Of a stretch of DNA of 64,000 nt, positions 4,320 to 20,299 are shown piece by piece. Position numbers and translations under genes: made by a program. The notes below the pieces were generated by a model, which saw only the letters and a program-made list of their open reading frames with translations, was not told the origin of the DNA and made no database searches. How positions within the stretch are numbered: position 1 is the first letter of the stretch; every line of letters begins with the position of its first letter. This DNA is from a virus, in the IMG/VR virus record IMGVR_UViG_3300009034_000014, positions 1-64,000 of that record; one strand, 5' to 3'.

Positions 4320-4669
4320 GGCGACCAGTACCTCTCTTCCTCGTACTCGTCGTCTTCGGGCTCTGGCTGTAACCGTTTTCGCTGTTGGTCCACAAAGCGA
4401 TCGATGCTCCAGACAACCATGGGATGCGGGCAGTACTTAGCTGCGGCCACCTTGGCTGTTGCTTCGTCCACGATCGTCAACCTGAAAATCGCGTTCTGGC
4501 CCAGCAGCGAGGTATAGCCCGGAGTTTCGTTTCCAGAGTCCACATCCACGCGCACGAAGCTGCACGCACCGATCGTCTGGCCAGTCACTTTGCCCGCGAT
4601 GGTGCCGTGACCAAAGAGTTCAACAACCGCGTATTCGTCGCAGCTCTGTATCTCGCCGTTCATGCTCAC
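4316..4669 (-). CDS. Conserved phage hypothetical protein (AVVELFGH...AG...FVRVDV)
   Basis: Motif typical of phage accessory proteins; coupled ORF. Confidence 0.7.
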   Translation of the reverse strand: MSMNGEIQSCDEYAVVELFGHGTIAGKVTGQTIGACSFVRVDVDSGNETPGYTSLLGQNAIFRLTIVDEATAKVAAAKYCPHPMVVWSIDRFVDQQRKRLQPEPEDDEYEEERYWSP

Positions 4670-4884
4670 TGTCCTATCACCGGCTGGAGTATGATCCGGC
4701 CAGGTTTTTCGTTCTCGACGTGCGCCACGATCCAGCTACTGCGTTCTGTCCGCCTCGCACTGCCAGGAAGTTTTCGAACCCAGGTGATCTCAACCTGCGT
4801 GCCTACCGATGGTATAGGCAGCCAGCCCCGTGGTATTTCCTTGGCATCCGAGAATTTCTTAATCTCGCCGGTCTTGGGATCCAT
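4666..4884 (-). CDS. Hypothetical protein
   Basis: GAGGT RBS; first gene after leader element 1. Confidence 0.65.
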   Translation of the reverse strand: MDPKTGEIKKFSDAKEIPRGWLPIPSVGTQVEITWVRKLPGSARRTERSSWIVAHVENEKPGRIILQPVIGQ

Positions 4885-4899
4885 TTATGCACCTCGTTC

Positions 4900-5080
4900 C
4901 TAAGCCACTCCACCCCTCTCAACCGGGCCGATGCCCACGGTAGTGGAACCCGGCTGAGAGGGGCTGGTGGCACAAAGTTCCCGAGCTTGACATGCAGACT
5001 CGGAGAGTTGATGCGCGACTTTTTTTTGGATCACCGTGGGCATCGTTTTGAATCCTAAATCATTCGATTAGCGATGTCAA
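4900..5080 (-). promoter_or_regulatory. Leader element 1: sigma70 promoter, leaderless uORF, hairpin with antisense loop
   Basis: TTGACA(5080-5075)-17-TAGGAT; uORF 5043..4900; 5033-5045 is the exact reverse complement of loop 4929-4941; stem 4913-4927/4949-4963. Confidence 0.75.
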
Positions 5081-5364
5081 GCTGAAAAGACCTTGTCCTG
5101 AAAAAAATCGACGGTATGGCAGTATCGGAAAAATGACCATCGCAATCCGGTATCGTCTGTTATGATCTCGGTGCGGATGCGCCAGCCCTCTGGACACAGC
5201 TTCCGCGCCCTGGACAACAACGAGGATAGGCTACGCCCGCGACGACCGAATTCTTTTTCCAGCCTTCGGCGGCCGATGGCTCTACCTGTGTTCCGTTTCC
5301 GCTGGAAGTAGCGGATCATCCGTTCAGGTTTTGATAACTTAGTCTTCGTCGTTACTTTAGCCAT
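5077..5364 (-). CDS. Basic putative HTH protein
   Basis: Helical basic pattern; start coupled to the uORF of leader element 2. Confidence 0.55.
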   Translation of the reverse strand: MAKVTTKTKLSKPERMIRYFQRKRNTGRAIGRRRLEKEFGRRGRSLSSLLSRARKLCPEGWRIRTEIITDDTGLRWSFFRYCHTVDFFQDKVFSA

Positions 5365-5510
5365 TGAAGATCCTAAACCGCCTCTCCCCACTTGGCCGGG
5401 TGACGATCTTGGCAAGGAGCCCCGACCAAGGGGGATCAGCGGAACTGGTTTGAGAATTTGCCAGGATCGTCATCGTTTCGTACCATAGACCACTCAAATG
5501 GTAATGTCAA
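5357..5510 (-). promoter_or_regulatory. Leader element 2 (same architecture)
   Basis: TTGACA(5510-5505)-17-TATGGT; uORF 5473..5357; 5458-5472 complementary (14/15) to loop 5401-5415; stem 5391-5400/5421-5430. Confidence 0.75.
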
Positions 5511-5519
5511 GTCGAAAGT

Positions 5520-5975
5520 TTAACAATTCCTCCACACGTAAGCCCACCACTGAGCGACGAGCACCGCATCCGCTTCGTCGTCTTCCACTTCCTGCCCGCG
5601 GAAGATACGCGCCAGCTTCTTGATCCCTTCCTTGTCCCCACGCTTCAGCATGTAGTACGCTTGCCAAGTTGCGGGATTGACCACAACGATCTCCATCCCG
5701 CGCAGCTTGGCCAAGATCTCCCAGAGGTACCGGCGGTAGAGCAGAGTCTTGATCCCTTTCGGGTTGCGGGGCTTGCGCTGGCCTTTGTGCGTAATGGTCG
5801 TCGCAATGAATTGATCCTCAATCACCAGAGTCTTGACGAACGAGTATTTCTTGAGCACGTTGAGGATCTTTTCGGTTTCGTCACCGTCCACCACGCCGCT
5901 GCGCTTTATGCAGCCTTCGTAGTACAATGCCCAGCCAGCGCGTTTCCCCGGGTCTATTGCAAGACAACCGCTCAT
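5520..5975 (-). CDS. RuvC-like Holliday junction resolvase
   Basis: LAIDPG, VIEDQ, VNPATW, DDEADA acidic catalytic motifs. Confidence 0.85.
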   Translation of the reverse strand: MSGCLAIDPGKRAGWALYYEGCIKRSGVVDGDETEKILNVLKKYSFVKTLVIEDQFIATTITHKGQRKPRNPKGIKTLLYRRYLWEILAKLRGMEIVVVNPATWQAYYMLKRGDKEGIKKLARIFRGQEVEDDEADAVLVAQWWAYVWRNC

Positions 5976-7168
5976 GGTCCAACGGCCAACCCATCCTCGA
6001 TCACAACTGCCACATCTCCGGTAGCGTCAATCCGCTCAAGCCACACCTGAGCATCGGCTTCGGCCGCCATCTTCCAGACCAGTTCCAGATTATCGGCGTC
6101 CAGATCGTTGCCGTTACGGATTAGCAAAACACTCAACTTGGGATTCATCGCTAATCCCATCGCTACCGATACACGGATACGCTCTGAAGTACTGGCCTGC
6201 TCGAATGGGATCCCCTGATAAGTGACACCATCGTCGTTCAAGCCAAGACCCTCGACAGGAAACCGCGCCCCTTTGATTTTCTTCTGCTTCAGCTCGTCGA
6301 ATAGTTGTATCTCTGCGGTGAACCCTTCTGCAGCGGCCTGCAGCGTTTCGAGTTCCTTCTTCTTCTCCATGTTCTCTTCTTTTAGCCGGATCCTCATGCT
6401 GATTTCATGGGCGTCCTTCATCCTCTTGACCAGCGGAGCTGGATCCTCGATAGGCTCCAGTTTACCGCCCAACTCCTTAAGATCTTGCCGCGCTTGTTCC
6501 AAATCCTTTGTCAGGGTTTCGACTCTTGACTTGGCGATGGTGTGCTCGCGTTTCGTTCGTTCCCGCTCGTTGTTGCTACGGTTGATCCTATCGATCTCGG
6601 CAGCTAGCTCATCGACGTTAGCTGGTTCACTCGGGGTATCGCTGAAGTCTCCCGCATCCAGCAGCAGCGCCTTGAGCCTCTTGATTTCCCGGTTGGTCTC
6701 GGTGCGCTGCGCGTACAGACTGGCCCGTTGGTTGTCTTGCTTGGCGAAGTCCAGCCCAGCGAGCTGCTTCAGAGTAGCGAGTTGTTTATCGGCCTCCATA
6801 CGGGAGAACTCCAGAGGATCGAAAGTCAACTCGCCGACTAGTGCATCAAGCACTTTCTGCGGTGAGCTATATTTCAGCCCCTCCCTGTTGCTCACCACGA
6901 GCGTTCCCCCGCCATTAGCGTTGATGACTCGCCTTACCACCAAGTCATCTGTTTCACAGACAATCGTTGCCTTATCCTCCCCTTCGCGGACGGGGCGGGC
7001 ACACTGCGCGGATTTCCCAGCAAAGGCATAAGCGATCGAATCCAAAGCGCTAGATTTTCCTTGGCCGTTCTTCCCCGCGATAACGACCACCGGACTACCG
7101 TCTGGTTCGATATGTATGGCCTTCAACTTCTTTACGTTCTCGGCTCTAAGACTTAATATTTTCGACAT
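5972..7168 (-). CDS. SMC/SbcC-like coiled-coil ATPase
   Basis: LRAENVKKL start, Walker A GKNGQGKS, long coiled coil, C-terminal ASTSE...VLLIR..DLD. Confidence 0.85.
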   Translation of the reverse strand: MSKILSLRAENVKKLKAIHIEPDGSPVVVIAGKNGQGKSSALDSIAYAFAGKSAQCARPVREGEDKATIVCETDDLVVRRVINANGGGTLVVSNREGLKYSSPQKVLDALVGELTFDPLEFSRMEADKQLATLKQLAGLDFAKQDNQRASLYAQRTETNREIKRLKALLLDAGDFSDTPSEPANVDELAAEIDRINRSNNERERTKREHTIAKSRVETLTKDLEQARQDLKELGGKLEPIEDPAPLVKRMKDAHEISMRIRLKEENMEKKKELETLQAAAEGFTAEIQLFDELKQKKIKGARFPVEGLGLNDDGVTYQGIPFEQASTSERIRVSVAMGLAMNPKLSVLLIRNGNDLDADNLELVWKMAAEADAQVWLERIDATGDVAVVIEDGLAVGP

Positions 7169-7194
7169 CGCTTTCACTCCCATTTCCGACCGGA

Positions 7195-7545
7195 TCAGAT
7201 ATTCGCCTGCCGGTCTTCGTCCTTCAACGCACGGGCATGCACGCGCTCGTTCGTATCGCAGCGGAAGATCACCACCACGCCCTTGTCGAAGTCTTGCTCC
7301 TCGTAGCATTCGATCTCCCTGAACTCACGTTTTGAGCGCACGATGTCTGATAGCTTGTCGAGCCGTTCCTTCAGATCCTTGATCTTGGCGCGATGATCCT
7401 TCGCCGACTTCTTCGCCGCTTCCTCCGTCTCGCCCAGCTCCTCGAACAGCTTCCCGAGCGTTCCGGCGCGCTCCACCATCTCAGGGTCAGTCAATTTAAC
7501 CGGACACTCGTGCTTCACTTTCTTGGTCTGAGATTTGTTAGCCAT
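7195..7545 (-). CDS. Hypothetical phage protein
   Basis: Charged helical ORF in the replication operon. Confidence 0.7.
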   Translation of the reverse strand: MANKSQTKKVKHECPVKLTDPEMVERAGTLGKLFEELGETEEAAKKSAKDHRAKIKDLKERLDKLSDIVRSKREFREIECYEEQDFDKGVVVIFRCDTNERVHARALKDEDRQANI

Positions 7546-7768
7546 CTTTCAGCGCCTCCCTTTCAAGTTTATCGTAGTCCTTCTTCCTGTCTTCTGATTC
7601 GCGGATCTTGATCACGAACTTTCTTCTCAGTCCGTCGATGAACGCTTCTTCTTCCTCCGGTGTTTTTCCCGTAGCCTTGGCGCCCATGCGCGCGGCCTTC
7701 TCGAACCCCTCCCACCAGGCCTTTCTCTTCTCCTCGTCTGTCGGTAACTTGAAATCGAAGTCGATCAC
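7538..7768 (-). CDS. Hypothetical protein
   Basis: Coupled ORF. Confidence 0.65.
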   Translation of the reverse strand: MIDFDFKLPTDEEKRKAWWEGFEKAARMGAKATGKTPEEEEAFIDGLRRKFVIKIRESEDRKKDYDKLEREALKDG

Positions 7769-8412
7769 TCTGGAACCTTTCTGTCTCTTGGCGTACCTCT
7801 ATAGCTCTGCCAATCGAATACTACTATATCGCAACCGTCCTCTTTTAGCCGATCTATCAGTCGCTCGCTTACGTAGTCGCGTAGCTCTGTCATGCCCAGA
7901 TTGGACACCAGCAGACTGGATAGTTCAGAACCGTACCGTTCGTTGAGAATGTCGAAGATGATTATATGTTCGCTATCGGTCCCGTACTGGGTGCCAACTT
8001 CGTCCAGGATGAGCAGATCGGCCAGAGTATATTTCTCGTAGACTTCCTTTTCAGACTCTTCCGCGCCATGGTTCCAGGCGGAGCGAAAGTGTTGGATCAT
8101 TTTGATCATGGTGGATGCGACTACAATTTTCTTGGCCAGGATTAGCTCGCGGGTGATGCCAGCTACGAGATGGTTCTTGCCGGTGCCGGGTCGACCAGTG
8201 AAGATCGCATTTCTGGGTCTGGAATTGCCCACCGTCTCGGCTATTTCTCTAGCTGTGCCCAGCGCGTGTTTCTGCCCATCTGTTTTCGCCTCGTAGTTGT
8301 CCAGAGTGCGGTTGACAAAACGCTTGGCAATGCCAAAGTCCTTCATGGTCTGGTCGATGTTTTTGATTCGCATACCAGCGCTGAACTCTTCGGACTGCGA
8401 TAGTTTTTTCAT
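7765..8412 (-). CDS. DnaC/IstB-like helicase-loader ATPase
   Basis: GRPGTGKNH Walker A, LLILDEVG Walker B, SNL, RLIDRL. Confidence 0.9.
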   Translation of the reverse strand: MKKLSQSEEFSAGMRIKNIDQTMKDFGIAKRFVNRTLDNYEAKTDGQKHALGTAREIAETVGNSRPRNAIFTGRPGTGKNHLVAGITRELILAKKIVVASTMIKMIQHFRSAWNHGAEESEKEVYEKYTLADLLILDEVGTQYGTDSEHIIIFDILNERYGSELSSLLVSNLGMTELRDYVSERLIDRLKEDGCDIVVFDWQSYRGTPRDRKVPE

Positions 8413-9242
8413 AACTTCCTACTCTTTCCGTAGTCGACTTTGGAGTAGTCTGGTTCTTTCGCTTTTGATTTTTTTCTTTCCTTCTCCCCCCACGAGGCTT
8501 TAAATCCCTGCCAGCCCATCATACAGCACTCTGCCAGCACTTCTTCCAACGTCCTGCCCGCTTTCTTGGCCTCTCGCTTTAGCCCTTCTATAGCCCTCTG
8601 TGTCAGTTTGGCATGTTTCCCCATCCGGAGTGTCACAAAGTCTTTTGCTGTTTGGTCTGAGATGCCTTCCTGAATCAGAATGGCGATCTGCTCTTTTTTG
8701 GTGAAATCGTTCCGTGTACGTTTTTTTTGTTGTGTACTATTCTTTCTTTTAAGATCTGGATCTGGATCCGGATCTGGATCCGGAAACGGAAACGGAGATG
8801 GAGACGGGGCATACCCGACGCATGCTGCTAGCATGCTCGTCGCGTGCTTATCGCATGCAGCGGGCATAGCGGACCTTTGATTTCCATAGTGTTTTTGTAG
8901 AGCAGCTTGCCGGGCACGTTCAGATCTTTCCTTATGTCCGACAATCCACCGCTGGTGTTCGTCCCAATCGTGGAATCTGAAATGAGGACACTCGCCATCC
9001 GGAGAATCCATCAACCGCAGGTCGACAAAGACCTTTAGCATGGCTTCCGCATCCCCTGGGTAGTCCACTTCGTCGGCCATGTCCAGAGCTGTCATGTTCT
9101 CTAAGATTCCATCCGTCCGCATCTCGGCAGCAAATGACCAGAGATCCTCAAGGGCAAGGACCCCATCGGCACCTAGCAGCTTTCGGAGCCGCTTTCGTTT
9201 TCGGTGTCTGCGCCATGTAGTGCTTATCCTGAAGTCTTCCAA
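8409..9242 (-). CDS. Phage replication initiator protein
   Basis: Directly upstream of the DnaC-like gene; FHDWDEHQ, PSPSP/PDPD linker, C-terminal GWQGF; TTG start with GAGGT RBS. Confidence 0.75.
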   Translation of the reverse strand: MEDFRISTTWRRHRKRKRLRKLLGADGVLALEDLWSFAAEMRTDGILENMTALDMADEVDYPGDAEAMLKVFVDLRLMDSPDGECPHFRFHDWDEHQRWIVGHKERSERARQAALQKHYGNQRSAMPAACDKHATSMLAACVGYAPSPSPFPFPDPDPDPDPDLKRKNSTQQKKRTRNDFTKKEQIAILIQEGISDQTAKDFVTLRMGKHAKLTQRAIEGLKREAKKAGRTLEEVLAECCMMGWQGFKASWGEKERKKSKAKEPDYSKVDYGKSRKL

Positions 9243-9251
9243 TGCACTACC

Positions 9252-9385
9252 TCAAAAAAAACCCCATCCGCCAGTTGGCACGACGCCACAAGGCATCACC
9301 AACGAATGGGGCCACTTCTATCTGTAGTTGGTTTGTGACGACGTGCCATGTTGCCTTTGGTACCACCCACCGAAACCGATGTCAA
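9252..9385 (-). promoter_or_regulatory. Leader element 3 (same architecture, ends in a U8 terminator)
   Basis: TTGACA(9385-9380)-17-TACCAA; uORF 9349..9296; 9333-9348 complementary to loop 9276-9291; stem 9262-9275/9298-9311; U-tract 9254-9261. Confidence 0.7.
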
Positions 9386-9399
9386 GCACTTTTTTTTTC

Positions 9400-10833
9400 T
9401 CACTCCCCATCCCCAGCTAAGTCCGTTTCCCGCTTGTCCAGGATTCTTTCTAGCCGGGAGGCCTGCACCGCGGTCATGCCGTAAACATCCGGCATTGATT
9501 CGCCTTCGCCGAGCACGCGTTCCATCCACTTTCTTGCCTCCTCCTCGTCGTCCCAGCCGATGAGCCCGCTTATTCGCTCAAGGGTACTATCCACGATCTC
9601 CTTCGCTAGGTGCACCACCACGCTCTTGGATTTTTCTTGTTCCGGCGGCGCACTCTCTTCCATTGCCTCCGGTTTCGGCGCATGATCAGCGATCCAGTCC
9701 AGGAGCATGGCGTCAAGGTTGTCCAGCCGTTTCGCTGACTGGGATCGGAGCTGACCATCGTGGATATTCAGGCCCTCCTTCCACTCCGCGATTTGCTCCG
9801 GTGCTATGCCAGCATCGTCGGCGCGGCGCTCGATCTCCACAAGACGCTCCTTCTTTTTGCTGCCAGCGGCGGCGCCTGGCTCCAGCTCCGTCCGGGGAGC
9901 TGTCGCGGGGCTCTGTTCCTCACTCGGTCCCGTTTGCACGGTTTCCGGCATGGCACTCGGGGCAGAGGTGGGCTCTGGAGACGTAGGAACACTCTCAGCG
10001 GCCTTCGGTGTTTGTCCCCCTTTCCCCCGTAGCTTGTCCATGACCGAAGCCGTCCTGGAGCCTCTCTGCGTTTCCGGCGCATCTCCCACGGGTGGGAAGG
10101 CGACCTCGATCTTCACAGAACCTTCGCGAATGGCGTTGAACACACCGCGCAACTTCGAGAGCTCGACGGCCCCTATTTCCTCCGTGCTTTGGATCTCCAA
10201 CGAGGCAAGCAGACTTTCTGTGTCAACGCCGAGTTTATGGAAGGTGTCGAGCATGACGCCTCTGGAATACGCGATGGCCTTCGCGTCCCCGAAAGCCACC
10301 TTCCGAGCCTTTGCGTATACCTCATCCACAATGGAGCGGCTAACGATCACGAAGACAACGTTCCTGTAAGAGATCATGGCCGCGGCATTTCCTGTCATCG
10401 TGATCATGTCGTCAGAGTAGCGGTTGCCACTCCGATCCGTGATTCGACGCCGGACTTCTCGCTGGAATAGGACGTTCTTCTGCATGTCCCACGCAGTCGC
10501 TTGTGCCGTGACGTATTTTTTACCCTCTTCGACAATCCTCGTCTGGCACCGAATGTTGCCCCAACTTGACATAGCGATCTCGGCGAGTCTGACGCTGGCC
10601 CCCTCGATGAGCTTGCCACCTCGCTTGTAGGCGTAGAAGCATGATTCCGCTACTTCTTTGTTCAGGCAGGCCAGGTTTTCCATGTCCTGTTTTACCTGCT
10701 CGATGTTTCTGGGGTAGGCCTTGGCTGTGGCCACCTGCATGTCGAACTCGCTGCGCGAAATCTGGGCAATGACTCCGGCGTCTGCGGCTGGGATGATCTC
10801 GATCTCCGGTCCATTGGTTTGTTCTTCTGTCAT
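9400..10833 (-). CDS. Putative ssDNA-annealing/recombination partner of YqaJ
   Basis: DMQVATAKAYPR...GASVRLAE...WGN conserved N-terminal domain; directly downstream of the exonuclease; function inferred from synteny. Confidence 0.6.
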   Translation of the reverse strand: MTEEQTNGPEIEIIPAADAGVIAQISRSEFDMQVATAKAYPRNIEQVKQDMENLACLNKEVAESCFYAYKRGGKLIEGASVRLAEIAMSSWGNIRCQTRIVEEGKKYVTAQATAWDMQKNVLFQREVRRRITDRSGNRYSDDMITMTGNAAAMISYRNVVFVIVSRSIVDEVYAKARKVAFGDAKAIAYSRGVMLDTFHKLGVDTESLLASLEIQSTEEIGAVELSKLRGVFNAIREGSVKIEVAFPPVGDAPETQRGSRTASVMDKLRGKGGQTPKAAESVPTSPEPTSAPSAMPETVQTGPSEEQSPATAPRTELEPGAAAGSKKKERLVEIERRADDAGIAPEQIAEWKEGLNIHDGQLRSQSAKRLDNLDAMLLDWIADHAPKPEAMEESAPPEQEKSKSVVVHLAKEIVDSTLERISGLIGWDDEEEARKWMERVLGEGESMPDVYGMTAVQASRLERILDKRETDLAGDGE

Positions 10834-10846
10834 GATTATTTCTCCT

Positions 10847-11845
10847 CTATTTGAAATAGGGTTTGAAAGGCCTAGAACCAGGCGAAACTTTCCTGAATTT
10901 TTCCAATGCCTCTGGCTTATTCTGACGGAACCATTCGGCCATTCCATTGGCATCCCATGACTCGCGGTCCTTGCTTAGCCGCCAGAGTATCTTTCCCCAG
11001 TGTCCGGAAACGCCGGAGGAATCACCGATGAATTCCTTGATCGTGTTCTCCTGAAAACGCGTCACCTCCTCCATACTCTTGATCGCGTCCCTGGCTTCCT
11101 GCAATTTTACGGCAGCAACATCTATCTCTGAATTTGATTGCCGTAAGTTTTCGGTAGAATGCCTTGGGTGGGTCTTTGCGAGATAAGCGGCGAAATCCTT
11201 GGACCCGTCGATGGGCGGAGGCTCCTGCTTTATCACGTACTCCCAGAATTTCTCGGTCTTGGCCAGCAGCAGATCGAACATCTCGGGATTGAAACTCAGG
11301 CGGTAGACCCAGAGGTCCCGGCCGATAAGCGGACCTACGAGCCCCTCCTGTTTTTCCAGTGCGCCCATCTGCCATTGCACCTGTGGGAGGTAGTATTCTG
11401 GAACTCCATCGGAAACTTCCAGTGGGCTTATCCAGTCGCGGGCAGTGAATGGCCCCGGGCTCTTGACCTCGGCCACGCACACGGCTTCCGACGCTTTCTC
11501 GCGTAACTCCGAGAAATCCCGAGGCAACTCGCCGTCGAACGCCAGTCCATCTGGCGTAGCTAAGACCAGTTCATGTTTCGGGTTCTGGAAAGTGATCGCT
11601 TTCTTCCCAGTGTTATGAAATATCTTGGTTTCTGTCCGCCGGCCCATCCAATTCAGGAGTGCGTCTTCTAGTTCATTCCCGCGCTCCTGATCGACCGTAG
11701 CCTCCTCGTCTTCCTCTGGCTCCTGAACTTTTTCCTCCCAGACCCTGATCGGGCTCTTCCACGGACTGAGCCCGCAAATAGCTGGGATGTCGCTCGCGGA
11801 TACGCCGCGACGGCGGAATTCTTTCTGCTCCAACGTCAATGACAT
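10847..11845 (-). CDS. YqaJ-like (lambda exonuclease family) recombination nuclease
   Basis: RRRGVSASD..AICGLSPW, G..LE, ATPDG, EVKS, Y.PQVQWQM. Confidence 0.92.
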   Translation of the reverse strand: MSLTLEQKEFRRRGVSASDIPAICGLSPWKSPIRVWEEKVQEPEEDEEATVDQERGNELEDALLNWMGRRTETKIFHNTGKKAITFQNPKHELVLATPDGLAFDGELPRDFSELREKASEAVCVAEVKSPGPFTARDWISPLEVSDGVPEYYLPQVQWQMGALEKQEGLVGPLIGRDLWVYRLSFNPEMFDLLLAKTEKFWEYVIKQEPPPIDGSKDFAAYLAKTHPRHSTENLRQSNSEIDVAAVKLQEARDAIKSMEEVTRFQENTIKEFIGDSSGVSGHWGKILWRLSKDRESWDANGMAEWFRQNKPEALEKFRKVSPGSRPFKPYFK

Positions 11846-11884
11846 GTCTTACCTCCGAGCAATAGAGTAACATCTTGGTCTGAC

Positions 11885-12048
11885 AAAAAAAAACGAGTTG
11901 CAGCCTCGCCCCCGTCGACCCAGGCAATTTGCTCGCGGGGACGAGCGCCCAGGCCTTGTTAGAGAAGGGCTGCAACTCGAACTTCAACTTTTCTGGATTT
12001 CCCGCGAGCATTGAACGGCAGCCTAGCAGGGCTAGAATACCTTGTCAA
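11885..12048 (-). promoter_or_regulatory. Leader element 4 (same architecture, ends in a U9 terminator)
   Basis: TTGACA(12048-12043)-17-TAGGCT; AUG at 12011; 12001-12010 complementary to loop 11930-11939; perfect 12-bp outer stem 11894-11905/11968-11979; U-tract 11885-11893. Confidence 0.75.
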
Positions 12049-12173
12049 GATCTTTTTTTTCGATTTTCTTGAAAGCTCCCACAGAATGAAAATCGTCTGT
12101 GAGGAGGTGTGACAGGAAGGGGGGTCTTCGTGTCACGCTGACCGCCGTTAATAGTGAGTTAATGTCACCTTCC

Positions 12174-12218
12174 AAAAAAAAGGTGGGAGAAACGAACCCT
12201 TGATCCCCGCCTTTTTTC
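12174..12218 (-). terminator. Probable intrinsic (possibly bidirectional) terminator
   Basis: GC-rich imperfect hairpin flanked by A and T runs after 12229..12444. Confidence 0.5.
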
Positions 12219-16788: not shown

Positions 16789-16968
16789 TCACACCTCCTC
16801 TCGGACGTATTCTGCCTCTGTGCGCTCCTCCGCACTCGGGACGGTACCATGACGCACCACGATCCCCTCACAGTCGCACTCTGCTCGGAGGCATTCCCAC
16901 CACTGATTGCCCATTTCGTCTTCGCATTCTCGGCCATCCGCCTCTCGAATCCAATATCTGATTTTCAT
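16789..16968 (-). CDS. 59-aa hypothetical protein (MKIRYWIRE...)
   Basis: Hand translation; fills the gap with ATGA coupling. Confidence 0.5.
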   Translation of the reverse strand: MKIRYWIREADGRECEDEMGNQWWECLRAECDCEGIVVRHGTVPSAEERTEAEYVREEV

Positions 16969-19121
16969 TTCGAGACTCCTTTCAGTTCGGCGATCAACTT
17001 CTCGCCGATCTGTCTGTGGTATTTCGGCAAAATCCTACGAGCCAGCCAGACCTGGCCATCGGTCAGCGGATCGGTCAATGATTTCTCGGCCAGTTCCTTG
17101 CCCACTCTGGTGTCGATCTTGTTGAATCCGCAGCCGTCCAGCGCCCGCGCGCCGTCACAACCTTCAGCTAGCATCTGTAGACCTTTCGCTGCGGCCTCTC
17201 GCTGAGCGTCCGTGGCTTTCGGGTAACTCTTCGGCCGCGCCGCACGCTTCCGATCATCGGTCGGTACCACGATGTCGGTCGAGTTGTCCAGCGCAGCGTC
17301 GGCCACCTCCTGTTTCTCGACCAGGACGTGGGCCATCCTTGCGTCGAGGCTGCCGTCCACCACCAGGTGCTGCACGAGCACCGACTCGGTCTGACCGATC
17401 CGGTGCGTCCGGTCCTCAGCCTGCGTCACATTCGCCGGCACCCAATCCAGCTCCGCGAATACCACATGGCTGGCTGCCGTGAGAGTGAGCCCTACGCCAG
17501 CGGCCGTGATCGACCCGATGAAAACCTTCACCGCCGAATCACTCTGGAATCGATCCACCGCGGTCTGCCGATCGGCTTGGCTCGTGTCTCCGGTCAGCCG
17601 CACGGCGCTGTCGCCGTAGTGCTCGGCCAGCGCCGCGATCACGTCCTTGTGGTGCGCGAAGGCCACGATCTTCTCGACGCCGGATTCTAGCGCGCCGTCG
17701 ATGTGGTCAATGACGGCCGGGATCTTGGCCACGGCCACGGCGTGCCGCAGTTTCGAGATCTCGGTGAAGGCTGCCTTCGCCGCCTCGCTCAGTTTCCCGA
17801 CCGCGGCCCGGTACGATTTGTCATCCCCCGCCGCGTGCGCGAGGTCAGCCTCGTCCCGTAGCTCGGCCAGCCGGTCCTCGTGCTGACGGAAGGCCTTCTG
17901 CTCCGCGCGCACTGCCGCGCCAGCGCCATTCGGCGCCAGCTCGACCACCTGGCGTCGCTTCGCCGGCAGCTCTGAGAGCACGTCTTTTTTCAACCGCCTC
18001 ACCATCACCAGCGCCCGGAGCCGCGCCTGTAGCTCGTCGAGATGAGACGCGCCGCTGAAGGACCAGCCGAATCGATTCTGCTGCGCGTCGCAGTAGCGTT
18101 TCGCGAAGCGAAAGAAGTTTCCAAACTCGCTCGGCAGCATCGCCGCCAGCACGGGCTGGATCTCAATCGGCCGATTCAGGAGGGGCGTCCCCGTAAGAAA
18201 GAGCTTGCGCTTGCAGCGGTCGACCAGACCGGGCTTGCGCTCATCGTCCTTCTTGCGGGGCGGCACTCCGAGCACGCGCTTCGTCCGCTGTGCTTTCTGA
18301 GATTTTACCTTGTGGGCCTCGTCCACGATCAAGAGATCCCACTCCCGCGCCATCAGCGCGTCAAAAACCTTGCCCTTCACGCGATCATAATTGCAGATCA
18401 CGATCTGGGCGTCGTCCGGGATCGGGTTGCCGTTCTCGACGACGTGGATCCGGAATTCCCGGACCAGCCACTTCTCCGCCTCGCGCCGCCAGTTGATCCG
18501 GAGGCTGGCGGGGACGATGACCAGCACCGTCCGAATTTCAGGACTGGCATTAATGACGCCAAGAGCCTGGATCGTCTTACCAAGTCCCATGGTATCGGCC
18601 AGGAGTGTCGATTCTCGCGCCATCGCATAGGCGATTCCAGCGCGCTGAAATGGCAGATACTCCAGCCCCTCTGGCGCGGGCACGTCGATCTCTGCGTCAG
18701 CGGCTCTGGACTGCTCGACAGCCTGCTCAGTCTCGGATAGCCGATCTCGCACGGCATCGACAGCGTACTGTATCAGCCGGACAGCGATAGCGCGATCAGA
18801 GGTCCACCACCGCTTCTTGTCGCGATCCCACCGGAATCCGGCCTGTTTCGGAATCTCACGGTGATCGTAGTCACAGCGGCAGACGTAGCGATCACCGTCC
18901 AGCACGATCCGCGCCACAGGGGCCAGCACGCAGAGGAAGCTCTCCACTCCATCGGCCGCGCCCTTCTCTTCGTCAGACAGCTCCGGGCCGTCCTGTGGCG
19001 CGGTCTGCGGGCACGACACGTGCCGTGCGGGCTGGCCACGGCTCCACTCGATCTCCGCACCGACCGCGATCTCCTCTCCGCAGTCGGCGCAAACACCGCT
19101 ATATTTCGCGCGGATGACCAT
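16965..19121 (-). CDS. SNF2/SMARCAL1-like helicase with N-terminal Zn module
   Basis: LADTMGLGKT, DEAH, LTGTP, QAEDRTHRIGQ. Confidence 0.93.
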   Translation of the reverse strand: MVIRAKYSGVCADCGEEIAVGAEIEWSRGQPARHVSCPQTAPQDGPELSDEEKGAADGVESFLCVLAPVARIVLDGDRYVCRCDYDHREIPKQAGFRWDRDKKRWWTSDRAIAVRLIQYAVDAVRDRLSETEQAVEQSRAADAEIDVPAPEGLEYLPFQRAGIAYAMARESTLLADTMGLGKTIQALGVINASPEIRTVLVIVPASLRINWRREAEKWLVREFRIHVVENGNPIPDDAQIVICNYDRVKGKVFDALMAREWDLLIVDEAHKVKSQKAQRTKRVLGVPPRKKDDERKPGLVDRCKRKLFLTGTPLLNRPIEIQPVLAAMLPSEFGNFFRFAKRYCDAQQNRFGWSFSGASHLDELQARLRALVMVRRLKKDVLSELPAKRRQVVELAPNGAGAAVRAEQKAFRQHEDRLAELRDEADLAHAAGDDKSYRAAVGKLSEAAKAAFTEISKLRHAVAVAKIPAVIDHIDGALESGVEKIVAFAHHKDVIAALAEHYGDSAVRLTGDTSQADRQTAVDRFQSDSAVKVFIGSITAAGVGLTLTAASHVVFAELDWVPANVTQAEDRTHRIGQTESVLVQHLVVDGSLDARMAHVLVEKQEVADAALDNSTDIVVPTDDRKRAARPKSYPKATDAQREAAAKGLQMLAEGCDGARALDGCGFNKIDTRVGKELAEKSLTDPLTDGQVWLARRILPKYHRQIGEKLIAELKGVSK

Positions 19122-19321
19122 CACACCGCGCCGCAACGAGGGCATTCCCAGCCCTCATCTGTGGAGAGCCACAGCTCCCCGCAATACGCACATGTGCCAT
19201 CTGCGGGGACCACTGTCCATCGCCCCCCACACGGACAGTGCATCTCTTGTAGACCGGGAGAAAACCCGGCATCGATGTCCAAGATCTCGTCACCACATTT
19301 GTCACATCTTGATTTCGCCAT
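19121..19321 (-). CDS. Multi-CxxC zinc-ribbon protein
   Basis: CDKC, CPC, CAYC, CPRC. Confidence 0.65.
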   Translation of the reverse strand: MAKSRCDKCGDEILDIDAGFSPGLQEMHCPCGGRWTVVPADGTCAYCGELWLSTDEGWECPRCGAV

Positions 19322-19367: not shown

Positions 19368-19616
19368 TCAGCACCCGCAGTAGCTATCCGACCATTCCCC
19401 ATCCGGGGTCATGTCGGAAAATGTGAAATTCCGGCCGCACTCCCAGCAGTTTTTCGTCTCTGCTGAACGCCGGCGGGGAGCGCGGGTGGTCGTACTCGAT
19501 CCGGCGCAGTCTACGTGCCGAGCACCGCCGCTCTTGCTCCACTCGATCCGGTCACCGACGCTGATCGCGCCGCCGCACACTCGGCAGGTCCCTCGATATT
19601 TCGCCGTGATCGTCAT
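19368..19616 (-). CDS. Small Zn-binding protein sharing the helicase N-terminal module
   Basis: ITAKYRGTCRVCG..I.VGDRIEWSK...RHVDC. Confidence 0.7.
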   Translation of the reverse strand: MTITAKYRGTCRVCGGAISVGDRIEWSKSGGARHVDCAGSSTTTRAPRRRSAETKNCWECGRNFTFSDMTPDGEWSDSYCGC

Positions 19617-19852
19617 GACTCCTCCTCGTCGTCGTCCAGCCCGTCCTCGCGGTACAGATCCAGCTCGCACCGCGGAGCGCAGTCACCGCAGAGCCATCCC
19701 GCCGTACTCCCGTCTTCTCTAAGGATCCGGCGAAAAGCCTCGCGGCGGCCTTCGGCCCGGCCGCACGACATGCAGACGACGACGGGGTGAGATGACACGT
19801 GAGTGTCCCCGCCGCCGCCTGCAATTTGAGTTTTTTTGCTTGTCCGTGTCAT
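19613..19852 (-). CDS. Small Zn-finger protein, first gene of the sigma54 operon
   Basis: CMSC...CGDC. Confidence 0.6.
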   Translation of the reverse strand: MTRTSKKTQIAGGGGDTHVSSHPVVVCMSCGRAEGRREAFRRILREDGSTAGWLCGDCAPRCELDLYREDGLDDDEEES

Positions 19853-19868
19853 CTCGGTTTATTATTAC

Positions 19869-19913
19869 TGCAAATAACGTGCCGTAGCAAATCTGTGTAG
19901 AATCAATGACTTA
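19869..19913 (-). promoter_or_regulatory. Sigma54 (-24/-12) promoter with upstream IHF site
   Basis: Minus strand CGGCACG-TTAT-TTGCA (19884-19869) versus consensus TGGCACG-N4-TTGCW; AATCAAtgacTTA (19901-19913) matches WATCAR-N4-TTR. Confidence 0.8.
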
Positions 19914-20299
19914 TGCGGCGCTCACTGTCCCCATTTAGACACACACCTATGCAAGCTTTTCACTTATGTAATGATTTCACTGAACTTAGCTGCTATGCAG
20001 TATTTTACCATATACGAAATTATTACATAGTTTTTCGAAGCGTTTACAGGCCGCGTGAGCCTCTGTTTCGGATCGAGGCATAGTCTACTATTCATCGACC
20101 GAAACGCGCGCGCTGTGGGCGCCGCTATCGATTCAGTATGTACCTGATATCTGTAGCGTTTTTCGGCCTATCGCGAACAGAGGCATTCTGGTGCTTCTCT
20201 CTGGTGATCCGGCGAAATGAGGTGATTTGTAAACCACTAATATTACGTAGGTATTTCTGATGCGTAGGATTATGATTTGGAGGGGGATGGGGAGGGCTA

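Follow-up and report, generated by a model that had tools for sequence, protein, structure and literature searches.

Candidate self-closing leaders in a virus genome: five early promoters followed by a hairpin loop complementary to the RNA 5' end

We studied the leaders of the early operons within the first 64 kb (in the following, the window) of a linear IMG/VR virus record of 83,438 bp that is estimated to be 83% complete. Five of these leaders (E1 to E5) follow the same design and are unrelated in sequence. In each of them, a promoter is followed by an ATG at the expected transcription start, and the 5' segment of 10-16 nucleotides (nt; segment A) has its complement (A') in the loop of a GC-rich hairpin (stem B:B') located downstream in the same RNA. 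What the data establish is this sequence anatomy, the fact that it recurs, and its maintenance in relatives by covariation. We are probably dealing with a real, previously undescribed RNA control device, since two relatives keep the design with different letters. All five units head early, replication or recombination operons.

Architecture of the five units

All units are located on the minus strand, and transcription start sites are predicted from the position of the -10 box. E1 to E4 were described before in an analysis of the letters alone (the original prediction), while E5 was found by a scan of the whole record.

The promoter of E1 (5052..5080, TTGACA-17-TAGGAT) agrees with the consensus at 10/12 positions, and its -35 box overlaps the end of the upstream gene for a protein of 95 amino acids (aa). 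The 13-nt segment A (5033..5045) begins 7 nt past the -10 box and includes the ATG 5043-5041. The hairpin (4912..4964) consists of a 17-bp stem (4964-4948 with 4928-4912) without a subsequent U-tract. A' (4941-4929) fills the final 13 nt of the 19-nt loop and is the exact complement of A (13/13). The open reading frame (ORF) from the 5' ATG (4900..5043, 47 codons) crosses the hairpin, leaving 16 nt between its stop and the ATG of gene 4666-4884. E2 has its promoter at 5482..5510 (TTGACA-17-TATGGT) and a 15-nt segment A (5458..5472) that begins at the U of the ATG 5473-5471. Its hairpin (5385..5435, stem 5435-5421 with 5400-5385) shows a 20-nt loop and again no U-tract. Here, A' (5415-5401) forms 14/15 pairs with A, leaving one C.A mismatch. 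The ORF (5357..5473) comprises 38 codons, and its stop overlaps the start of gene 5077-5364.

E3 and E4 are preceded by A-tracts of 9 and 8 nt, respectively, both placed 4 nt upstream of the -35 box, and their hairpins resemble terminators. In E3, the promoter (9357..9385, TTGACA-17-TACCAA) is followed by a 16-nt segment A (9333..9348) that begins at the U of the ATG 9349-9347. The terminator hairpin (9254..9313) pairs 9313-9298 with 9275-9260 and ends in a U8 tract (9261-9254). A' (9291-9276) matches A at 15/16 positions when counting one G.U pair, with one U.U mismatch; in the unconstrained fold, part of A' is found inside an inner helix. The 17-codon ORF (9296..9349) ends just past the 5' arm of the hairpin, where its stop overlaps a further ATG (TGATG). 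In E4, the promoter (12020..12048, TTGACA-17-TAGGCT) is followed by a 10-nt segment A (12001..12010), which also begins at the U of its ATG (12011-12009). The terminator hairpin (11885..11979) combines an outer stem (11979-11968 with 11905-11894) and an inner stem (11955-11946 with 11926-11917) with a U9 tract (11893-11885), and A' (11939-11930) is found in its apical loop, pairing 10/10 with A. The ORF from the 5' ATG has 112 codons.

E5 lies outside the span 4900-12048 that holds the other four and heads a helicase operon. Its promoter (19861..19890, TTGCTA-18-AATAAT) is located at the edge of an AT-rich non-coding stretch. The 11-nt segment A (19845..19855) begins 6 nt past the -10 box and includes the ATG 19852-19850, from which an ORF for a 79-aa zinc-ribbon protein extends (19613..19852). 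The hairpin (19771..19823, 17-bp stem 19823-19807 with 19787-19771, no U-tract) is part of the coding sequence, and A' (19799-19789) is complementary to A in 11/11 positions.

Comparing the units, we observe a tight layout. The ATG is found 7-8 nt past the -10 box in 5/5 units (8, 8, 7 and 8 for E1 to E4, 8 for E5). Segment A begins 6-10 nt past this box in all cases, which coincides with the expected start site; no unit has it further upstream. The loops, too, hardly vary in layout, with a linker of 5-7 nt before A' and 0-3 nt between A' and the 3' arm. For E1 to E4, this is in agreement with the original prediction, which had named four intergenic sites with TTGACA-17-(-10) and an ATG 7-8 nt further on, the four loop complementarities, the two terminal U-tracts and an ORF that enters or crosses each hairpin; all of this holds on the minus strand. 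Termination, which ORF translation was proposed to prevent, cannot be the mechanism common to all units because a U-tract follows only 2/5 hairpins (E3 and E4).

Three observations concern the surroundings of individual units. A perfect 10-bp inverted repeat (4984-4993 and 5074-5083) connects the -35 region of E1 (AGCTTGACAT) with a site 80 nt downstream in the E1 leader; in RNA reading through from E2, the E1 5' segment could be enclosed by this repeat. In the unconstrained fold of E2 (5365-5480, minus strand), about 11 bp including 2 G.U pairs connect the 5' segment with the AGGA ribosome-binding region of gene 5077-5364. Because of this predicted pairing, the loop A' and the ribosome-binding site may compete for one and the same 5' segment. 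Finally, the AT-rich non-coding stretch upstream of E5 (19900-20130, about 230 bp) marks the boundary of structural and early genes and contains more promoter-like sequences.

Departure from chance and conservation in relatives

The promoter pattern TTGACA-N16-18-TA has exactly four matches in the window, namely E1 to E4, all of them intergenic and on the minus strand. The count as such is not unusual (2.24 expected; at least 4 in 15/100 shuffles). The hairpins of E1 to E4 are the minimum-energy folds of their regions with z-scores of -4.65, -3.18, -3.19 and -2.32, respectively; for the E5 fold the z-score is -4.1.

To rate the complementarity, we used an ungapped pairing score of the first 32 nt after the -10 box versus the following 150 nt, with 3000 random genome positions as background. 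E1 to E5 reach scores of 17.8, 15.0, 16.3, 14.0 and 14.0, given a 99th percentile of 14.4 for random positions. Scores of at least 18, 15, 16 and 14 are found for fractions of 0.0003, 0.006, 0.004 and 0.016 of the random positions. A looser RNAduplex-based measure, compared with 4000 random positions, gives weaker values for E1 to E4 (0.0055, 0.136, 0.049 and 0.10).

We also performed a promoter-anchored scan of 1.21 Mb of phage DNA plus this genome. Among the 721 promoter-like sites, 10 show 5'-proximal complementarity, and only E1 to E4 combine it with an enclosing stem and an ATG. E5 is not among these, as it fails the promoter filter, and neither is the leader of relative L031 introduced below, which has a branched hairpin and no ATG. 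It replaced a loose scanner for inverted repeats plus stem, which we rejected for reporting 21 hits in the real sequence versus 14-19 in shuffles. Perfect inverted repeats of at least 10 nt with a spacing of 30-160 nt are found 21 times in the 83-kb genome. Plus-strand promoter-like hits inside E2 and E4 were considered as antisense promoters and rejected, given that E1 and E3 have no counterpart.

For the RecE-like protein encoded behind E4, we found 12 relatives with 43-62% identity. The comparison of leaders covers two close relatives, L031 and L013, at one orthologous unit (E4). L031 was the single locus resulting from a scan of metagenomes of the Joint Genome Institute (JGI), and its RecE is 62% identical. 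Its leader shows an A-tract, a promoter TTGACA-17-TATGGT and flanks that can be aligned to E4. Its 5' and loop segments differ from those of E4 at most positions and still pair 10/10, and the outer stem is different, too. In L013 (RecE 41% identical), a third A:A' pair (11/11) is seen, and the stem enclosing its loop segment, of 18 bp, differs as well. That is, E4, L031 and L013 present three A:A' pairs and three stems at the orthologous site upstream of the RecE-like gene, where the pairing is kept by compensatory change. On the sequence level, this is compensatory evolution at the E4 site, and the pairing of 5' segment and loop is supported as a selected RNA feature, since both orthologous leaders keep it in different letters. 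The covariation for which the original prediction had suggested to look is present in these two relatives. L013 further shows a promoter-like TTGACT-17-GAATAG (5869-5960) that is followed by a plain 5'-terminal stem-loop without loop pairing.

Other searches for relatives provided little. An alignment scan of IMG/VR for RecE resulted in 18 loci, among which only L013 is close, and single-protein scans of IMG/VR with RecE and with the SbcC-like ATPase returned nothing. No RecE relatives were found in a scan of GTDB genomes, and none of the E5 zinc-ribbon protein in an alignment scan. A tblastn search with the RecE-like protein hit 178 records, all below 60% identity, with 23-28% for the best ones listed. 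Scanning IMG/VR for the promoter-plus-AAACGATG pattern gave 11 loci, none of them related according to tblastn.

A self-closing leader and its alternatives

Our preferred explanation, to which we give somewhat less than an even chance, is an intramolecular pseudoknot of 5' end and loop. It would close the 5'-terminal start codon soon after transcription and would both gate leaderless translation and protect the 5' end. From the anatomy described above, we infer where transcription starts, that the pseudoknot forms, that the 5' ORFs are translated, and all functional consequences. The host's sigma-70-type RNA polymerase would initiate at or within about 3 nt of the AUG, and the first 10-16 transcribed bases (A) would face their complement (A'), which occupies the 3' part of the loop in a strong B:B' hairpin made 40-90 nt later. 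Before A' emerges, the 5'-terminal AUG would be free, such that ribosome loading would need no Shine-Dalgarno site. As soon as A' has emerged, A would pair with it on the same molecule. In the resulting pseudoknot, A:A' would be stacked on B:B' with the RNA 5' end against the top of the stem, i.e., the start codon would be closed and the 5' end hidden from 5'-end-dependent RNases. A timely ribosome would melt the hairpin on reading through; for E3 and E4 this would also keep the intrinsic terminator from acting ahead of the replication initiator and of the RecE-like gene, respectively. The output of the operon would be set by the speed with which a ribosome captures the nascent 5' end, and each leader would use its own private pairing sequence.

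Energies and loop geometry are consistent with this scheme. If A:A' forms on top of the intact hairpin, the gain amounts to about -9 to -13 kcal/mol, not counting a pseudoknot penalty. Forcing nested A:A' pairing, i.e., testing for an antiterminator, results in folds that are 7-17 kcal/mol weaker than the hairpin for E1 to E5, with no mutually exclusive fold. A:A' would therefore add to the hairpin rather than replace it. In a pseudoknot, a short linker could cross the A:A' groove while A' continues into B'. The uniform loops would suit such a structure, with A:A' stacked on the stem and the 5' end at the junction. We favor intramolecular closure because A' abuts the 3' arm and a linker of 5-7 nt is found on its other side, which fits a pseudoknot better than a free antisense loop.

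Whether the 5' ATG is a start codon can be judged best for E5. A full-library search revealed two homologs of its 79-aa ORF, both of 71 aa, one of which has the N-terminal M.T.KKT.I motif in common. Both homologs lack residues ~11-24, which is exactly the hairpin; that is, the hairpin is an insertion. Furthermore, the first Cys of the CxxC motif is encoded upstream of the sole internal ATG. Since motif, insertion and Cys position concur, the 5' ATG of E5 is probably a real start without Shine-Dalgarno site, as far as homology can tell.

Several points count against a self-closing leader. The start of E5 is uncertain in that an internal GTG with a purine-rich stretch upstream remains a candidate. 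The 5' ORFs of E1 to E4 are not conserved as peptides, and their stop positions are not unusual, with stops as near to the next start in 6% and 12% of shuffles (E4 left out). The comparative support is thin, consisting of two orthologs of E4 alone. Of these, L031 has no ATG in A, only a GTG 3 nt in, and L013 shows a poor -10 box and an ATG just outside the paired bases. The design is absent at 15 more distant RecE loci, upstream of 80 replication-initiator loci and in the rest of relative G001; because the more distant loci lack it, it seems confined to a small clade. The ATG may also be linked to the promoter without being a start: the record's best consensus promoter, a sixth one outside the window (genome 79535-79573, plus strand, TTGACA-17-TATACT), likewise has an ATG 7 nt past its -10 box, which opens an ORF of two codons and has no pairing partner. 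Finally, a plain 5' hairpin would protect the 5' end more cheaply, and the energy argument is approximate since ViennaRNA cannot score pseudoknots.

A broader claim is that of a new class of cis-acting RNAs that is characterized by architecture and not by sequence. Here, a programmable anti-5'-end loop would shut a leaderless start about a second after transcription. With five orthogonal copies, the phage would set the timing or the dose of each early operon, and terminated or processed hairpins could also feed back in trans as private repressors. We consider this possible, yet doubtful.

An unlikely explanation is trans-acting antisense control of the P4 CI, P1 c4 or IsrK kind, as proposed in the original prediction. 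The hairpin would be released by termination or processing, and its loop would pair with the 5' ends of new transcripts, blocking the leader ORF and promoting termination, which would provide five private channels of feedback or immunity. The order of promoter, target and hairpin with complementary loop on one transcript is that of P4 seqA/seqB (PMC4825925), and c4 RNA also shows its complementary sequences in loops (PMC12197685). E3 and E4 would yield terminated RNAs of about 90-125 nt. When all A and A' segments are paired computationally, each one has its best partner in its own unit, with -21 to -29 kcal/mol versus -5 to -18.5 kcal/mol for non-cognate pairs. However, 3/5 hairpins have no terminator, and since a released RNA would include A as well as A', self-pairing is to be expected unless it is processed. 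For a loop acting in trans, it is not obvious what the constant, asymmetric position of A' would be good for. We found no second target of the seqC or c4 a1/b1 kind near ribosome-binding sites, i.e., no other exact copy of at least 8 nt of any A near its unit; scattered copies of 8-10 nt lie elsewhere in the genome. A 6-nt match to the E4 loop near the recE ribosome-binding site, spotted by eye, is not kept in L031 and was dismissed as chance. Although c4 is a defined Rfam family, Rfam has no match at gathering score over the window. At E-values up to 10, there is no C4-type match either, only 6 weak unrelated hits in 4800-12200 (mir-320, snoRNAs, DUF805b, UCA1) and none in 19600-20200. The 83-kb record, 83% complete, also has no match to tyrosine (PF00589) or serine (PF00239) recombinases, i.e., no integrase. 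Thus, of the original interpretation, the pairing of 5' segment and loop as an RNA feature stands, whereas action in trans, a stable processed RNA and immunity are not supported. Given no integrase, no second target and terminators at 2/5 sites, immunity in trans is weaker than the pseudoknot in cis.

It is rather improbable that A:A' is a pure stabilizer, which only buries the 5' triphosphate end from pyrophosphohydrolase, RNase E and RNase J, with an incidental or promoter-related ATG and no control of translation or termination. 5'-terminal pairing is known to stabilize bacterial mRNAs. In favor of this, the pairing extends up to 0-3 nt from the predicted 5' end and in no unit goes past it. 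Since A' directly borders the 3' arm, the 5' end would come to stack on the stem, and at the plus-strand promoter at 79535 the ATG opens no real ORF. On the other hand, an ATG at 7-8 nt in 5/5 units is unlikely by chance and not needed for stabilization, the ATG of E5 seems to begin a conserved protein, and a local 5' hairpin like the one at the other L013 promoter would suffice. We give a low chance to a factor that reads the shape, such as RNase III, which would process the stacked A:A' and B:B' helix of about 25-30 bp, or a phage antiterminator that targets RNA near the promoter. The 5' pairing would then only lengthen the double-stranded target. RNase III needs about 20 bp, a length that the stacked helices would attain. 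Units of promoter and subsequent terminator are typical of antitermination-dependent operons (lambda PR'-tR'), and the product of the gene next to E2 on its downstream side is a very basic protein of 95 aa. Opposed to this, the five hairpins offer no common sequence to a specific protein, and the 95-aa protein looks, as a lead from modeling, like a winged-helix DNA binder. Least probable by far is chance or a feature on the DNA level, such as operator inverted repeats or recombination scars, without RNA function. Single 10-nt matches are indeed not rare, as seen from the 21 perfect inverted repeats and the hits of the loose scanner in shuffles. Still, five co-located sets of promoter, ATG, stem and loop complement occur at uniform spacing, and the orthologs covary. 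The site-specific sequences are all different, which rules out one DNA-binding protein, and with A, B, A' and B' interleaved in this order, the arrangement corresponds to a pseudoknot and not to nested DNA palindromes.

Known systems and genomic setting

Pairing of a loop or distant segment with a 5' end or start region, which shuts translation, is known from RNA-OUT/RNA-IN of IS10 and from the 5'-3' fold-back of hok mRNA. RNA-OUT is a separate antisense transcript, and hok pairs its 5' with its 3' end and masks the Shine-Dalgarno site.

In icaR mRNA, distant parts of one molecule, namely the 5' and 3' untranslated regions, also pair at the start region and shut translation, but the Shine-Dalgarno site is masked there in place of a leaderless AUG (PMC3868564). 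The closest precedent is found in MS2 and other Levivirus RNA: translation of the MS2 maturation gene is possible only as long as a long-distance pairing is not yet in place, in which an upstream segment of the same RNA pairs with the translation start region, leaving ribosomes a short window for loading on the nascent chain (PMC4615214). There, an upstream complement plus a kinetic trap masks the Shine-Dalgarno site, while here a downstream loop would mask a 5'-terminal AUG, in mRNAs of a DNA phage and with the design present five times over. Leaderless short-ORF attenuators of mycobacteria share the leaderless 5' AUG and a short ORF as the first cistron that governs the operon (bioRxiv 10.1101/834739; PMC4633059). 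They sense cysteine via Cys codons; here, we see no evident sensor codons and instead a dedicated anti-5' loop.

P4 CI RNA (seqA/seqB/seqC) and its relatives IsrK/STnc1160 of Gifsy-1 resemble our units in that one promoter drives first the target and then a hairpin RNA with complementary exposed bases, which governs read-through into phage genes (PMC4825925). In contrast, our units have one target only, which is the extreme 5' end with the start codon, in five sequence-unrelated copies per genome. Terminators are present at two units only, the geometry suggests action in cis, and we found no processing signals, lysogeny genes or Rfam match. Also c4 of P1/P7 presents an antisense sequence in a loop that is co-transcribed with its target, and c4 specificity sequences differ among heteroimmune phages as the pairing sequences here do among units and relatives. 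Unlike the design here, c4 blocks in trans the ribosome-binding site of the antirepressor gene ant (PMC12197685).

That is, there are precedents both for masking a start region over a long range and for antisense loops encoded in a leader. What we found neither in Rfam nor in the literature searched is the set of features combined in these leaders: an AUG at the 5' terminus and an anti-5' loop private to each unit, in five copies that are unrelated in sequence and head all early operons. In the literature, the search for a 5'-AUG/loop design was mostly outside subscription journals, such that absence is not proven.

Provided that the pairing functions in this way, leaderless translation and the fate of mRNA 5' ends would be under a simple control that needs no protein. 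The regulation of leaderless mRNAs is poorly understood. The device would need only an address of 10-16 nt and its mirror in a loop, which would make it easy to re-program and a useful synthetic part. A phage could run its whole early program by parallel RNA switches without common sequence, and for lack of such a sequence, catalogues like Rfam would miss them. Given the near-consensus sigma-70 promoters, the units are directly testable in E. coli.

Nearly all long ORFs are on the minus strand, and the span from 20 kb down to position 1 holds the early genes for replication and recombination. Behind E5 follow a helicase and an ATPase. E4 precedes the RecE-like exonuclease (PHROG E-value 3.7e-64; Pfam YqaJ 2.6e-20) and a phrog_3657 protein, and E3 precedes an O-like replication initiator, a DnaC-like loader, the SbcC-like ATPase and a Holliday-junction resolvase. 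Behind E2 and E1, we find small ORFs of 95 and 72 aa, respectively. A blastn comparison of the region with GenBank phages gave no match on the DNA level.

The helicase (16965-19145, minus strand) has its best GenBank matches in the Thermus phages MN1 (39%) and phiLo (37%) and in Rhodothermus phage RM378, which is a weak hint at the host lineage. The very basic 95-aa protein (gene 5077-5364, minus strand) resembles winged-helix DNA binders in model-based comparison, which we take as a lead only (scores <0.9, TM ~0.6); it is possibly an early regulator. Outside the window, a LAGLIDADG homing-endonuclease ORF (Pfam E-value 4e-11; genome 79608-80282, plus strand, i.e., 15608-16282 of L113) lies on the opposite strand within the open frame of a 608-aa DNA methyltransferase. 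Matches to the methyltransferase family flank the ORF, and from this arrangement it may be an intron- or intein-like insertion.

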